Assembly (NCBI GenBank): GCA_041650995.1
Contig: JBAZJZ010000001.1
Coordinates: 491,302 to 555,301 of the forward strand
Length of the DNA: 64,000 nt
Direction: 5' to 3'
Source of the DNA: Patescibacteria group bacterium
Lineage (GTDB): Bacteria > Patescibacteriota > Patescibacteriia > XYB2-FULL-38-15
A program made the translations under genes and the position numbers. Shown here piece after piece: positions 6,335-57,064 of the stretch. Positions within the stretch are counted from its first letter, which is position 1. Each line of letters starts with the position of its first letter. The notes beneath the pieces were generated by a model. The model saw only the letters and a list, made by a program, of their open reading frames with translations, did no database searches and was not told the origin of the DNA.

Positions 6335-6502
6335 CTAGCACTTGCAGTCGCAACTGCAATCGGCGCAATCGCAACAGTCGCAATTGCTGCGGTCGCCGGA
6401 GGTCTGTGGGCCTCTCGAAGTCCGCCGCAGGTCCTTCTTCGACAACGGCTTGGCAGCCGCCCTCTTGCCCTTGAGGGCACGGACCATTTGCACAGCGCTC
6501 AT
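6335..6502 (-). CDS. 55-aa Cys/Asp-rich candidate RiPP precursor peptide (MSAVQMVRALKGKRAAAKPLSKKDLRRTSRGPQTSGDRSNCDCCDCADCSCDCKC)
   Basis: Hand translation of the minus strand gives this peptide. Its ATG overlaps the TGA stop of the upstream radical SAM gene (ATGA), and an AAGGAGGT Shine-Dalgarno sits 6 nt upstream. It has a basic leader and a C-terminal core with 8 Cys and 6 Asp in 16 residues. It falls below the 60-aa cutoff of the ORF track. Confidence 0.7.
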   Translation of the reverse strand: MSAVQMVRALKGKRAAAKPLSKKDLRRTSRGPQTSGDRSNCDCCDCADCSCDCKC

Positions 6503-7602
6503 TCCTTTACCTCCTTTCTACTGATAATTTCCTCTGGGTCGAAATGAGTCCAGAGGAAAGGACAGCCTCCTACACACTTCCCCCAGTGACGACAGCCCTT
6601 ACACTTCTCGTGAGGATATCGCCATATCTCACGCCGGAAGACTCCGTGGATGCCCTTCCTGCCGTACCAGACCTTGGCAAAGTCTGTCGCGGTTTTTACG
6701 GATTGCTCGCTCAGGTTGAAGAGCGGCCGCCCGACGAAGTGAGTGCACGGCAGAACATTGCCGTTAGGTTCGAACACCGCACCCGAGCCATAGAAGATGT
6801 GACAGTGGACACCATCGGAGATGCAGCCGATGGTCATCATCTCGTCCAGCAACGATTGATCAAACAAGCACAACGGAATCGTCGCGAAGAACTTCACCTT
6901 GATTCCTTTCGCCTTTAACGCCAAATAGGCGTCGGTGACGATTTGAGCCGTATGGGCCGGAGACAAGGCGAAAGACTCAGTTTTCTCTTGGCTACCGCCA
7001 GCCGAAGGCAAACCAACGTTAAAGAGGATGTTAACCACTCCCATTTTGTGCATCAACTCAGCTAGCGGAATCACTTCTCCGAAGTTGTGTCTGCTGACAG
7101 TCAGCAGAGTGTTGAACGACAGACCAAGCCTGAGACAATTCTCCACGCCCGCCATCGTCTCTCGAAAACTCAAGGTTCTGGTCACCGCGTTGTGGACTTT
7201 GGCGCTAGATCCCTCTACAGAGATGCTAGCGTGCTTTAGCCCGACATCGACAAGCGACCGTATGTACAGAGGATTGGCTAGTCTGCGTCCGTTGGTCACC
7301 AACTTGAACTCGATGTCAAACTGACTGCCTGCGCGTATCAGTTCAGCCAATCGGGGGTAGAGTGTTGGCTCACCGCCGATCAACAAACAGTCAGACGCTC
7401 CCATCTCTTTCATCATTCCACAGATTCTGATAGCCTGGTCAAAATCCATTGGCCGATCAACGAACTGACTGTGTTCGGCATAGCAACCGGCGCAATGATT
7501 GTTGCAGCCATAAGTCAACGCCAACCAGAACGTCTTGATCTGCGGTCGTTCTGTCCTTCCCATTTTTCTCTCCTTGCTTCTTCGCCAAGAACTCACGTTC
7601 AT
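6499..7602 (-). CDS. Radical SAM enzyme with a C-terminal SPASM/twitch domain (peptide-modifying maturase type)
   Basis: The CX3CX2C motif is present (GCNNHCAGCYAE). The C-terminal Cys cluster (CISDGVHCH...PCTHF...CKGCRHWGKCVGGCPF) is typical of SPASM domains. GC content and codon usage are markedly higher than in neighbouring genes. Confidence 0.8.
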   Translation of the reverse strand: MNVSSWRRSKERKMGRTERPQIKTFWLALTYGCNNHCAGCYAEHSQFVDRPMDFDQAIRICGMMKEMGASDCLLIGGEPTLYPRLAELIRAGSQFDIEFKLVTNGRRLANPLYIRSLVDVGLKHASISVEGSSAKVHNAVTRTLSFRETMAGVENCLRLGLSFNTLLTVSRHNFGEVIPLAELMHKMGVVNILFNVGLPSAGGSQEKTESFALSPAHTAQIVTDAYLALKAKGIKVKFFATIPLCLFDQSLLDEMMTIGCISDGVHCHIFYGSGAVFEPNGNVLPCTHFVGRPLFNLSEQSVKTATDFAKVWYGRKGIHGVFRREIWRYPHEKCKGCRHWGKCVGGCPFLWTHFDPEEIISRKEVKE

Positions 7603-53728: not shown

Positions 53729-55021
53729 TTATGGTCTTAATCTATTAATCATTCTTGGAAAAGGGATCGTTTCGCGAACATGATGAATGCCGCACATCCA
53801 GCCGGTGATGCGCTCCAACCCGTAACCAAAGCCTGAGTGAGGAACCGAGCCGTATTTTCTTAAATCTAAATACCATTGAAAATCTTCAAGCAGCATTTTT
53901 TCTTCTTTCATTCGCGCAAGCAATAAATCATAATTGTCTTCACGCTCCGAGCCACCGATGATTTCTCCGTGGCCTTCCGGCGCGATTAAATCTGAACCCA
54001 AAACCAGTTCGGGATTTTTTGGATCGCGTTTCATATAAAAAGCTTTAATTTGCCGTGGCCACTTTTCCACAAAAATCGGTACGTCGGAATCTTGAGTCAG
54101 CAAAGTTTCATCGTCAGCACCCAAATCTTCGCCATCTTTAATATCAGACCCTAACGCTTGAACTTTTTTAACCGCTTCATGATAAGTCATTCGCCCAAAG
54201 GGAGCTTGAACTTTTTCTAATTTGGAAATATCTCGTTCCAAAATTTCCAATTCTTTTCTATTTTTTTCTAAAACTTTTTTCACGATATGGCAGATCAATT
54301 CTTCCTGAATTTTCATATTGCCCTCGTGATTAACAAAAGCCGCCTCGGCGTCCATCATCCAAAATTCCGTTAAGTGTCGGCGAGTTTTTGATTTTTCCGC
54401 CCGGAAAGTCGGGCCAAAGTCAAAGCATCGGCCAAAACTCATTGCCGCGGCTTCAAGATAAAGTTGACCTGACTGCGCAAGATAAGCTTTTCCTAAATCA
54501 AAATACGGAACTTCAAAAAGGGTCGTTGTTCCCTCGCAGGCGGTCGGGGTCAAAATCGGCGTGTCAATTTTTATAAAACCATTCTGATTAAAATATTCAT
54601 AAGTCGCGTTGATGACAGTATTTCTAACGCGAAGCGCCGCCCATTGTTTTGATGAGCGAAGCCAGAGGTGTCTTTGATCTAACAAAAAATCCGGGCCATG
54701 TTCTTTTTTTCCAATCGGGTACTCTTCAGCAATTTGAAGTATTTTTAAATTTTTAACTTGAAGTTCATACTCTTCTTTTTTGGGATGTTTACTGACAGTT
54801 CCGGAAATTTCTATCGAACTTTCTATAGTTATTTTTTCGCAAGCTTCCCAGATTTCTGGAGCTACTTCTTTTTTAGAAACAATCGCCTGGACAAAGCCTG
54901 AACCGTCACGAACTTGTAAAAAGAAAATGCTACCCGAGGAACGAAAATTAAAAATCCAGCCGCGAATCGCGACTTCCTGGCCTAAATATTGGCTAATATC
55001 TTTCAATAAAATCGTCTGCAT
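53729..55021 (-). CDS. asnS: Asparaginyl-tRNA synthetase
   Basis: It is a class IIb enzyme. The motif region reads GEIIGGSERE, and the C-terminus reads …PHSGFGYGLERI…IPFPR. Confidence 0.7.
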   Translation of the reverse strand: MQTILLKDISQYLGQEVAIRGWIFNFRSSGSIFFLQVRDGSGFVQAIVSKKEVAPEIWEACEKITIESSIEISGTVSKHPKKEEYELQVKNLKILQIAEEYPIGKKEHGPDFLLDQRHLWLRSSKQWAALRVRNTVINATYEYFNQNGFIKIDTPILTPTACEGTTTLFEVPYFDLGKAYLAQSGQLYLEAAAMSFGRCFDFGPTFRAEKSKTRRHLTEFWMMDAEAAFVNHEGNMKIQEELICHIVKKVLEKNRKELEILERDISKLEKVQAPFGRMTYHEAVKKVQALGSDIKDGEDLGADDETLLTQDSDVPIFVEKWPRQIKAFYMKRDPKNPELVLGSDLIAPEGHGEIIGGSEREDNYDLLLARMKEEKMLLEDFQWYLDLRKYGSVPHSGFGYGLERITGWMCGIHHVRETIPFPRMINRLRP

Positions 55022-55104
55022 ATAATTGTTTAATTATAGATTATTTACCCAACAAAATCAAGATAAAAAGACCGACCAGTCGCTGCTGATCGGCGTACAT
55101 ACTC

Positions 55105-55419
55105 TCACTCCCTTCCTTCCGCGACTCGACCATCTTCGCCGCGGTCATTCTGCGCCTTGATGACTGCGAGTTCTTGTTTGAACTCACGCCACCATCGATT
55201 GAACTTGAAACTCGCCTTTGCAACTAAGATAAACCAAACGCCGAGGAAAGTGAGAGGCAGCGCGATGCTTAAGAATACCCACCCGCTCATTCCTCCGGCG
55301 ATGTAATCCCAGTTCACGATGCCGATACACACCCAGACGAGCGCGGCCAGAAAGATTGCTAACCATGACGGAAAAGTCGCGCCGATGTTTAGTTCGGCGT
55401 TCTCTTTCTCGTTTTCCAT
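55105..55419 (-). CDS. Small two-TM protein with a charged C-terminal tail (104 aa) in a GC-rich insert
   Basis: The translation is MENEKENAELNIGATFPSWLAIFLAALVWVCIGIV...WFILVAKASFKFNRWWREFKQELAVIKAQNDRGEDG. Confidence 0.45.
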   Translation of the reverse strand: MENEKENAELNIGATFPSWLAIFLAALVWVCIGIVNWDYIAGGMSGWVFLSIALPLTFLGVWFILVAKASFKFNRWWREFKQELAVIKAQNDRGEDGRVAEGRE

Positions 55420-55531
55420 CTCGCCCTCCTTCTGCCTCAACTTTATCATAAAACCAAAAAACGTCAATTTATTTTATAAAAAAGCCGATCCAGAATATTT
55501 TTCTGAATCGGCGAGAACGTTGGAACTGCTC

Positions 55532-56212
55532 CTATCTGTCAAGGAACAGCCGGCGGCGACAGGAAGGCACACCGCGGTCTTCTCTCCGACTATCCAACTG
55601 GCTAAAGTTCTGTGTCGGACCGCCAGAACTAAGCCAAAGTTCTGGCACGCATTGCCGGCGAATGCCGTTTCCTGACCACGGTTCACTCTGGTAGTCCGCA
55701 TCAATCAACGCGAAGGCGTGATGAATGAGCGATTCCGGTGAGTGGAGAGCGAGAGCGATCGCTTCTTCCATAATGAGGCCGTGCCGGCAAGCGCGTTTGA
55801 TCTCGCCCGTAACTTCGCCCGTAGTCCGGCCCACATTCCCAGCGCCGTCGTCCACGTCGCAAATGAGATGGGGCGATTTCGACTCACCGATTCCCTCGGG
55901 ATTCCACAATTTGTCACACTCGAGACTCGAATAACCGTGCTTCTTTGCCACGACGAGCAGTTCCATTTGCTTCGCGACAGAAAGCATGGCGTGAGGAATC
56001 ACGACAAGAAACGGGGTACGCTCGGGAATCGTCTCGCCGACCGCATGAAGAAGGCCCGTGGGCGAATCGGCGAGCATGGAAAGATAGAGTCGAAGATCTC
56101 TCTCTGCCCACCCGAGCGCCGTATGCCAACCACCTGCGACGAGTCGCTCCACCTGCCGATCAAACACCTGCCGAAGCAGAGTTCCTTCATCCGGACAACT
56201 CATCGGAAGCAT
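55532..56212 (-). CDS. Hypothetical protein (226 aa) in a GC-rich insert
   Basis: It is the most protein-like of several overlapping frames in this GC-rich stretch. No recognised motif was found. Confidence 0.35.
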   Translation of the reverse strand: MLPMSCPDEGTLLRQVFDRQVERLVAGGWHTALGWAERDLRLYLSMLADSPTGLLHAVGETIPERTPFLVVIPHAMLSVAKQMELLVVAKKHGYSSLECDKLWNPEGIGESKSPHLICDVDDGAGNVGRTTGEVTGEIKRACRHGLIMEEAIALALHSPESLIHHAFALIDADYQSEPWSGNGIRRQCVPELWLSSGGPTQNFSQLDSRREDRGVPSCRRRLFLDR

Positions 56213-56224
56213 TTACTCCTTCCT

Positions 56225-56265
56225 CCCAATTCCTTGGGTACAAAAAAACGGCGGAGGATTCCTCC
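56225..56265 (-). terminator. Rho-independent terminator (GGCGGCGGAGGAGG-AATC-CTCCGCCG + TTTTTTTG on the minus strand) after recO
   Basis: A perfect GC-rich hairpin is followed by a T7 run on the minus strand. Confidence 0.7.
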
Positions 56266-56302
56266 TCCGCCGCCCCCTTTCAACGTTCTGAAATTGAGTT
56301 TA

Positions 56303-57064
56303 TCAAATCTTTAATGTTTTGGTCAAATAGTTTATCCACATAAGGCTTTTTAGCTCTCTATCCCGATGAACCTCGGTAAAAATATCAATAATTTTTGCCA
56401 ACTCCCCGACATGCGCTTTGGTAATTTTAAGCACCACTATTTTTTTAAAATTATTTTCTAAAACAAAACGTGAAATTTTTATCGCCGCAGTGGAAATCGG
56501 TAGCTCACCCCCGCCACACTGACCGCAAGTTAGTCCTCCTCTCCCCGCGTCAAAAAAATTTCTGCTCGGGGTAATTTTATTTTTACATTTAACGCAAGTA
56601 TAAAGTTCTGGCATCCAACCGAGAATGGTTAATAATTTTAAAACAAAAAATTTTGATAAGATATATAATTTTAAAAAACTTTTAATTTTCACCTCATTAA
56701 AAATTTCTAAAATTTCCAAAAGCAATTCATAGATTTTTAAATCCGGATGATCAGTTTTAGTAAAAACATCCACTATTTCTAGACAAAAACTTGCAAGCAC
56801 GGTTTTTCCTAAATCACTTTTGATATTTAAAAAATTTTTTTCTCTGGCAGCACCAGCAATTTGATAGTTTGTTTTCCCTGGTGCCACCATTAAATCAATC
56901 ACGGAAAATAGTTCCAGGTGCCCAGCCATTTTACTTTTTATTTTTCGTACGCCCTTTGCCACCGCGGAAATTTTACCGAGCTCGTCGGTATAAATTACAA
57001 AAAGACGATCGCTTTCACGATAGTCTTGTTTTCTTAAAATTATACCTCGGACAAGACGCGTCAT
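56303..57064 (-). CDS. recO: DNA repair protein RecO
   Basis: An N-terminal OB fold (…ILRKQDYRESDRLFVI…) is followed by a C-terminal Cys4 zinc motif. Confidence 0.8.
   Translation of the reverse strand: MTRLVRGIILRKQDYRESDRLFVIYTDELGKISAVAKGVRKIKSKMAGHLELFSVIDLMVAPGKTNYQIAGAAREKNFLNIKSDLGKTVLASFCLEIVDVFTKTDHPDLKIYELLLEILEIFNEVKIKSFLKLYILSKFFVLKLLTILGWMPELYTCVKCKNKITPSRNFFDAGRGGLTCGQCGGGELPISTAAIKISRFVLENNFKKIVVLKITKAHVGELAKIIDIFTEVHRDRELKSLMWINYLTKTLKI

Follow-up and report, generated by a model that had tools for sequence, protein, structure and literature searches.

Gene content and base composition of the recO-asnS gap

The stretch of DNA analysed here (the window, 64,000 nucleotides of a contig of a Patescibacteria group bacterium) was found to contain a gap of 1.28 kb between the genes recO and asnS, in which two minus-strand open reading frames (ORFs) of deviant base composition are located; these two ORFs and the site which they occupy are the subject of this report. 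The gap extends from the asnS start (55021) to the recO stop (56303) and corresponds to the segment 55040-56300 picked out in an earlier sequence-only reading. The genes asnS and recO close a long co-directional string which contains ribosomal protein genes followed by secY, adk, map, ruvX and recO. The genes of the locus are as follows.

53729-55021, minus strand: asnS
55105-55419, minus strand: ORF B, 104-amino-acid (aa) small membrane protein with two transmembrane (TM) segments, GC 52%, GC at third codon positions (GC3) 0.64
55532-56212, minus strand: ORF A, 226-aa soluble protein of the family DUF5701 (PF18959), GC 57.3%, GC3 0.60
56303-57064, minus strand: recO

The GC content was found to be 41.8% in the window, 52.4% in the whole gap and likewise 52.4% in ORF B, and ORF A was found to be the 681-bp sliding-window GC maximum of the entire 64 kb. 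The GC3 values of ORF A and of the ORF B frame lie at z = 5.9-6.9 relative to the 54 other ORFs of the window (0.361 ± 0.040), and the sole other GC3 outlier was the radical-SAM/SPASM gene at 6499-7602 (minus strand, GC3 0.63). The dinucleotide signature distance of the two ORFs from the rest of the window was 186, which is 3.6 standard deviations above that of host windows (79.5 ± 29.5). The GC deviation claimed in the sequence-only reading is thus real and far beyond chance. The same reading had described a GC-rich insert of about 1.2 kb, and this holds for the two ORFs but not for the spacer between them, which comprises 112 nt of only 38% GC; the compositional anomaly is limited to the two ORFs, and the signals between them are not affected. 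A donor signature common to the two ORFs and the radical-SAM island had also been considered. The distance between the two ORFs and the radical-SAM gene was 137, smaller than from either to the host, which would fit donors of a similar kind without proving them.

Close homologues of ORF A were found in 27 cases, with protein identities of 46-89%. The pairwise ratio of nonsynonymous to synonymous divergence (dN/dS) was 0.14-0.24 for ORF A where the synonymous divergence (dS) was finite and 0.19-0.24 for ORF B; the ORF A values are comparable to that of recO (about 0.1). ORF A and ORF B are both real genes under purifying selection because of these conserved homologues and dN/dS values of 0.14-0.24. 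The start codon of ORF B is the ATG preceded by AGGAGG and not the upstream TTG. The long ORFs in several frames noted earlier are present, but they are by-products of GC-richness, since the sense frame of ORF A alone stays open across the six loci compared (6/6); the antisense ORFs over ORF A were rejected as genes as they were not conserved among these loci.

Gene content of the same site in related genomes

The gene for the DUF5701 protein was found directly after recO in every recovered DUF5701 locus (L001, L002, L004, L007, L030, L020 and L021, of which L020 and L021 are end-of-contig or short fragments), and asnS was found downstream of the slot wherever the contig reaches it. The order recO, DUF5701, asnS is present in L001, L002, L004, L007 and L030, and the DUF5701 genes of all the recovered loci contain 55-59% GC, against 41-43% in the flanks. 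An assembly chimera was rejected, as the arrangement was found again in at least nine independent assemblies, including a closed chromosome of 886 kb (L001).

Four different gene contents were found at this one site. The slot contained DUF5701 alone in L002 and L004, and DUF5701 followed by a GC-rich 400-aa ORF on the reverse strand in L001, L007 and L030. It contained DUF5701 followed by ORF B in the window and in L011, the latter with the addition of a 61-aa ORF with two TM segments. In L010, DUF5701 is missing; its place is taken by an aspartate/ornithine-carbamoyltransferase-like ORF, after which comes the ORF B cassette. The absence of ORF B from L002 and L004 has clean borders at the terminator. 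In L010, homology to the flanks of DUF5701 extends through the leader up to the start codon and resumes at the terminator after the stop codon, and since this homology covers both the leader and the terminator that flank the exchanged ORF, the replacement is ORF-precise. A metagenome scan with the leader pattern yielded only two further loci, both with DUF5701, and no empty site. The site does behave as a small cargo locus, acquired or flexible, directly behind the recO terminator. Its description as an insert does not agree with the relatives, as DUF5701 is not a recent arrival here: all examined relatives that carry the gene have it at this site, even where protein identity is as low as 46%.

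The following observations were also made on these loci. The carbamoyltransferase-like ORF of L010 (a contig of GCA_036704725.1, positions 1150-2142) encodes 330 aa, has a GC3 of 0.77 and contains HPTQ and HPLPR motifs seen by eye. A gene of this kind would be unusual in a Patescibacteria genome, as pyrimidine synthesis is typically missing there. The 400-aa ORF (L001 6970-8172, L007 6770-7969 and L030 6737-7942, all minus strand; 59% GC) lies downstream of the DUF5701 terminator and ahead of the asnS promoter; it ends in a terminator of its own and gave no Pfam or PADLOC match. In L001, about 120 extra nt were found after the DUF5701 terminator (approximately 6745-6865) with a long-range inverted repeat, CCCCAGCACTAA ... 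TTAGTGCGGGG; a small structured RNA and a miniature element are both conceivable for this segment. The recO gene of L004 (5043-5912) contains an insertion of about 36 codons in the C-terminal domain (289 versus 253 aa). The sequence of L001/L013 (OZ246416.1, a chromosome of 886,192 bp) is titled 'uncultured Gammaproteobacteria bacterium'; its gene order is as in the metagenome-assembled genomes of Patescibacteria and its AsnS is 92-94% identical, by which the label is probably wrong.

Leader, promoter-like sites and terminators

The predicted expression signals of the gap are listed below; the promoter-like sites were called by consensus scan.

56297-56326, minus strand: promoter-like site TTGACC, 18 nt, TG-TAAACT, covering the final codons and the stop of recO, 5' of the recO terminator
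56274-56290, minus strand: unpaired leader block CAGAACGTTGAAAGGGG after the recO stop, containing the 5' copy of the 8-mer AGAACGTT (56282-56289)
56242-56277, minus strand: recO intrinsic terminator, 16-17 bp G+C-rich hairpin then T7, inside the 5' leader of ORF A
56213-56238, minus strand: small hairpin CCCAAGGAATTGGG then Shine-Dalgarno GGAAGGAG, directly 5' of the ORF A start codon
55514-55521, plus strand: second, inverted 8-mer, which reads AACGTTCT on the coding strand and lies immediately 5' of the ORF A terminator
55476-55512, minus strand: ORF A terminator GCCGATTCAG...CTGGATCGGC + T6, with a homologous hairpin after the cargo gene in L002, L004, L007, L010 and L011
55440-55467, minus strand: ORF B promoter-like site TTGACG, 16 nt, TG-TAAAGT, conserved with the L010 and L011 cassettes
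55064-55094, minus strand: ORF B terminator GCCGATCAG...CTGGTCGGT + T run, abutting the asnS promoter
55033-55061, minus strand: asnS promoter-like site TTGATT, 17 nt, TATAAT, kept in L002, L004, L001 and L007, the downstream border of the variable slot

A separate terminator is predicted to bound each gene, and a promoter-like site was called individually for ORF B and for asnS. The junction of the ORF B terminator with asnS, TTTTTATCTTGATTT, was found to be identical in L002, which does not contain ORF B. The strong terminator after recO that had been proposed earlier was found again as a hairpin with T7. Between it and the ORF A start no room is left for a promoter, and the sole promoter-like site for DUF5701 lies upstream, in the recO end; its -35 and most of its -10 were kept in seven loci, and its transcript, if active, would start from about 56289-56290. 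Expression of DUF5701 would proceed by read-through or from the promoter-like site at the recO 3' end.

The leader, about 90 nt long, shows 90-95% conservation across seven loci, against differences at about 50% of the synonymous positions next to it. It contained an invariant core AGAACGTTGAAAG in all seven loci followed by the presence of the full 17-mer block in five of the seven (5/7), with neighbouring synonymous sites at a dS of about 1; the 17-mer is present as a single copy in the window. One pair in the stem of the recO terminator varies: the window and L030 have G-C, L002 has G-U, and the remaining four loci have A-U. The small hairpin and the Shine-Dalgarno were kept in all seven loci, including L010, whose downstream ORF differs. 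Folding of the leader gave a minimum free energy of -40.8 kcal/mol (z = -4.55). A known RNA in the leader was rejected, the only Rfam match being sub-threshold (Clostridiales-2, 21.5 bits versus a gathering score of 58.6). No further copies of the leader motifs and no other members of the terminator-hairpin family were found within the window.

The 8-mer AGAACGTT was found only twice in the window, in inverted orientation, each copy immediately 5' of a terminator that brackets DUF5701. The two copies form a pair (I5) with 11/12 complementary positions. The 3' copy is present at the same position in L001, L004, L007 and L030, and in these four relative loci of 8-13 kb the 8-mer is likewise limited to the two positions. 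About two copies per window are expected by chance. The inverted 8-mers and the leader may possibly serve as operator sites, in 5'-3' pairing of the mRNA, as a short leader RNA or as cassette ends. An invertible element was rejected, since one orientation was found in all assemblies and the repeats are too short.

A dedicated cassette dock has to be weighed here, in which a site-specific or RNA-guided process would swap foreign ORFs in and out between an unchanging leader and an unchanging terminator, with the AGAACGTT 8-mers as ends or as partners in 5'-3' RNA pairing. The ORF-precise replacement in L010, where homology resumes at the start and stop codons, agrees with such a dock, as do the conservation of the leader and the restriction of the 8-mer to two positions in the window and four relatives. 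However, no recombinase, attC-like site or integrase was found nearby, the 8-mer is very short and at its chance frequency, and its 3' copy is missing in L010. Moreover, a single replacement event was seen, and homologous recombination via the flanks together with selection for the expression signals gives the same pattern. The dock is therefore considered highly unlikely. An extended form, in which the recO-asnS junction of this genus would be an expression dock with high-GC foreign ORFs swapped codon-precisely between a strongly conserved leader, its promoter in the recO tail, and a conserved terminator, with the inverted AGAACGTT as cassette-end or RNA-pairing signals, and in which DUF5701 would be a new fold with an episymbiotic role, is given just as little credence.

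The same signals bear on the proposal of the sequence-only reading that the two genes are a toxin/immunity or anti-phage defence pair, in which DUF5701 would be the effector and the TM protein its membrane partner or immunity factor. The two genes are adjacent and both are foreign in composition, the TM gene shows strain-level allele replacement, and the closest DUF5701 gene from outside the Candidate Phyla Radiation (CPR) (P0031, L016) adjoins a SIR2_2 protein, a PIN/Phd toxin-antitoxin pair and an OLD-like ATPase (OLD-nuclease), a defence-island-like neighbourhood. However, the 112-nt spacer contains a hairpin + T6 terminator followed by a separate promoter-like site, by which the genes would be separate transcription units. 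In L001, L002, L004, L007 and L030 there is DUF5701 but no ORF B, and L010 shows the converse, ORF B but no DUF5701. The surroundings of DUF5701 elsewhere are mostly unlike defence loci, and PADLOC-DB 2.0 finds neither the two ORFs nor the alternative cargo genes; over 49 DUF5701 members it gave only two single matches (E >= 0.02). The independent distribution largely refutes the pair, which is regarded as very improbable.

Divergence of the slot and of its flanks

The flanks were found to be star-like among five genomes, with a protein identity of 92-94% and a dS of 0.8-1.2 in asnS, followed by a dS of 0.9-1.4 in recO. The DUF5701 genes of the window and L002 have a dS of 0.41 and a divergence at four-fold sites (K) of 0.22, which is 2-3 times (dS) or 3-5 times (K) below their own flanks, and both contigs are from one ENA sample, ERZ27247363. 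This discordance, together with the common sample, indicates that DUF5701 alleles were probably exchanged recently between co-occurring species. In the strain-level relative L011, identity to the window is for the most part 97-100% (85-100% in 40-nt blocks) between 55840, in the middle of DUF5701, and about 30 codons into ORF B, where the following feature is located.

55325-55335, no strand: approximate recombination breakpoint in ORF B versus L011, at which identity falls abruptly to 45-65% on the asnS side

This strain-level turnover of ORF B alleles hints at an interaction under diversifying pressure.

In another explanation, the two ORFs are long-standing native genes whose GC is kept high by selection, acting for instance on codon choice or on the structure of the mRNA, or else by a repair bias. 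The GC3 of 0.58-0.64 in every lineage despite a synonymous divergence of about 1 or more, and the position of DUF5701, which is fixed throughout the clade, are in accordance with it. Against it, unrelated cargo of the slot is also GC-rich (the 400-aa ORF, the carbamoyltransferase-like gene and the TM gene), and as this holds for all of it, GC richness would seem to be a property of the incoming DNA and not of one gene. DUF5701 genes elsewhere match the GC of their hosts, and the allele of the window and L002 is far younger than its flanks. The numbers would also fit partial amelioration from a donor, as a donor GC3 of at least 0.9 could have fallen to about 0.6 in the course of about 0.5-1 synonymous substitution per site in each lineage. 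A native origin is accordingly held to be unlikely.

Proposed history of the slot

The reading preferred here, to which a probability of about 0.7 is given, is that the gap is a small flexible-genome hotspot with two independent single-gene units of foreign composition. DUF5701 would have been gained horizontally before the sampled genus-level clade diverged and would have stayed at the same site ever since, read from a strongly conserved leader of native type (recO terminator, small hairpin and Shine-Dalgarno) and only partly ameliorated to a GC3 of about 0.6. Lineages that co-occur would occasionally have swapped DUF5701 alleles, by homologous recombination in the conserved flanks, and the DUF5701 ORF would have been replaced precisely at least once, by the carbamoyltransferase-like ORF. 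ORF B would be a sporadic cassette of promoter, ORF and terminator between the DUF5701 terminator and the asnS promoter, varying even among strains, and the 400-aa ORF would likewise be a sporadic additive cassette beside the old clade-wide resident DUF5701.

Several points weigh against this hotspot reading. No integrase, transposase or recombinase ORF was found in the gap, no tRNA within 10 kb, and no target-site duplication or direct repeat of more than 12 nt at the site. No empty recO-asnS site was recovered, so that the direction of the original event is only inferred. No donor was identified, as DUF5701 elsewhere matches the host GC (39-75%) and the nearest relatives outside the CPR are only 28-34% identical. 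Values of dS above 1 are near saturation and perhaps distorted by differing base composition. The promoter-like site of DUF5701 lies upstream of a strong terminator. The contexts of DUF5701 elsewhere are heterogeneous.

The DUF5701 protein

The two ORFs had been called unrecognisable and the 226-aa ORF free of known motifs, and this was not upheld for ORF A, which matches Pfam DUF5701 (PF18959) with E 3.6e-11 and 43.7 bits (gathering threshold 27.4) over profile positions 1-171 of 206. The NCBI name of its product is 'DUF5701 family protein' (MFA5128901.1). The Pfam match was also found in all 49 aligned relatives, and the family comprises about 620 clusters at 50% identity in an exhaustive profile search. 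In the 49-sequence alignment, the residues conserved family-wide (F17, Q20, Y115, G123, R143, E150 and S217-C218) were all found to be present in ORF A, which contained the family motifs FDxQV, IPFLIVIP, PYLIxDVExG and RxGLTxEEGIAL followed by the presence of VPxLW and G-x-[PA]-S-C-x-x-R.

The CPR members were found to form a tight subfamily, with E <= 1e-78 among themselves and >= 1e-35 to the rest of the family. They are likewise stand-alone and of the length of most other PF18959 members (about 210-230 aa). Unlike the family at large they are confined to one chromosomal site, and they lie 15 GC points above their own genome, whereas the other members match their hosts. The actinobacterial members have a GC3 of 0.83-0.98 and an identity of 20-30% and hence are not direct donors. 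In a search for mobile carriage, no plasmid match and no viral-contig relatives of either ORF were found, and a single weak match to a phage record was obtained (25.8% identity, E 9e-5).

The AlphaFold2 model of ORF A has a mean predicted local distance difference test score (pLDDT) of 90.4 and a predicted template modelling score (pTM) of 0.89. No Foldseek match to it was found in the PDB or in the BFVD viral library, and PDB sequence and profile searches with ORF A were also without match, so that the modelled structure is a candidate new fold. No signal peptide or TM segment was found in the protein in this clade (maximum 19-residue hydropathy 1.46), because of which DUF5701 of this clade is taken to be cytoplasmic. 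Secreted and tandem forms exist in the family: among the domain fusions, one Ser/Thr-kinase fusion and one tandem duplicate with a signal peptide were found, followed by otherwise unannotated extensions, and no consistent clue was obtained.

The contexts of DUF5701 elsewhere are mixed. They include a DMFA2_C-domain protein (N,N-dimethylformamidase beta subunit-like), a dCTP deaminase, a phosphoketolase and arrays of type IV secretion system (T4SS) pilins. A more distant DUF5701 gene (P0039; L026, 2521-6229) was observed to adjoin seven tandem T4SS_pilin (PF18895) genes. No consistent partner gene was found in these neighbourhoods, and guilt-by-association was rejected as a route to the function because of their heterogeneity. 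No paper mentioning DUF5701 was found in a literature search. A variable protein of a diversity-generating retroelement, prompted by a lectin-like hint, was also rejected, since conservation along the protein is highest at its C-terminus and a scan of 54900-56400 gave no template repeat.

The conserved polar residues and the stand-alone occurrence suggest an autonomous enzyme or binding module. DUF5701 may tentatively be described as a stand-alone cytoplasmic alpha/beta protein without a dedicated partner, perhaps an enzyme or a ligand-binding module around Q20, Y115, R143, E150 and S217-C218, and any more specific role is doubtful.

The two-transmembrane protein

ORF B was found to have the two TM helices and the charged C-terminal tail described earlier, with hydropathy peaks at residues 17-35 and 48-66 followed by a tail that is basic and then mixed. 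The N-terminus is acidic (-3) and the membrane-proximal start of the tail is basic (+4), from which an N-in/C-in topology is predicted by the positive-inside rule. The AlphaFold2 model (pLDDT 71) is a helical hairpin in which the TM2 helix runs on to residue 101 and would be cytoplasmic. A search of 5.8 billion proteins gave only three relatives, of which one is identical and the others share 62-63% identity. In L011 (729-914), the stop of the ORF B allele is overlapped by the second small ORF with two TM segments (61 aa), which has no counterpart in the window.

The holin-like character proposed in the sequence-only reading holds only for the two-TM topology. A holin, with the region as the remnant of a prophage lysis cassette, would agree with the two helices, the predicted N-in/C-in arrangement and the charged tail, with a weak PHROG holin match (E 0.077, the best obtained) and with the overlapping ORF of L011. 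No significant match to a holin family was found in Pfam, NCBIfam or PHROG, however; the matches in Pfam and NCBIfam were weak (E 0.0076-0.5), well under the curated cut-offs, and none was to a holin family. No endolysin, spanin or phage gene is located nearby, the neighbours being asnS and DUF5701 or the carbamoyltransferase-like gene, and no relative was found in 2.9 million viral contigs. The topology is common to many unrelated small membrane proteins, and Foldseek gave no specific match for the model. The holin is thus barely credible, and ORF B is tentatively regarded as a possible accessory inner-membrane protein. Compared with class II holins and pinholins, it is alike in the small size, two TM helices and charged cytoplasmic C-terminus, but differs from them in that it matches none of them by sequence or family and has neither lysis genes beside it nor a phage setting.

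Comparison with known systems

Hundreds of genomic islands have been reported in Patescibacteria, with transfers mostly within the phylum (PMC12455944). The present slot is likewise located in a streamlined CPR genome, with deviant acquired genes and evidence of transfer between co-occurring Patescibacteria, but no mobility genes are present here and the island is under the size usual for island predictors. In replacement flexible islands, as outlined in PMC4033161, one site is occupied in all strains by different genes and homologous recombination is named as involved. As in such replacement and additive islands of aquatic prokaryotes, the slot lies between conserved core genes with a content that varies among close relatives, and the histories of its alleles are decoupled from those of the flanks, consistent with recombination in the flanks. 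The slot differs from the islands described there in being very small, with one to three single-gene units, ORF-precise behind a common leader, and no glycosylation or surface-polysaccharide theme.

The slot also resembles integron cassettes, in that units of one ORF each, foreign in composition, are stacked at a single site behind fixed expression signals, but it contains no IntI or attC-type sites, and ORF B brings its own promoter-like site. The only border inverted repeats found were terminator hairpins of 24-29 nt, and no integrase was found in the 12-kb neighbourhoods.

The region is a case of real but ordinary small-scale gene flux in a streamlined CPR genome and not a new defence or toxin module, and its main value lies in the correction of the toxin/defence-pair idea. 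It provides a clean and well-bounded replacement/additive micro-hotspot in Patescibacteria, in which a single sample reveals the exchange of alleles among species that co-occur. DUF5701 is placed in CPR genomes, and its confident model without a Foldseek match (PDB, BFVD) makes it a reasonable structural and functional target.

Neighbourhood of the radical-SAM gene

At the other GC3 outlier of the window, a 55-aa ORF with a Cys-rich tail, MSAVQMVRALKGKRAAAKPLSKKDLRRTSRGPQTSGDRSNCDCCDCADCSCDCKC, was found at 6335-6502 (minus strand), the ATG of which overlaps (ATGA) the stop of the radical-SAM/SPASM gene, and this ORF is followed by the presence of a hairpin and a T run. The 55-aa ORF and the radical-SAM/SPASM gene look like a putative precursor of a ribosomally synthesised and post-translationally modified peptide with its maturase.

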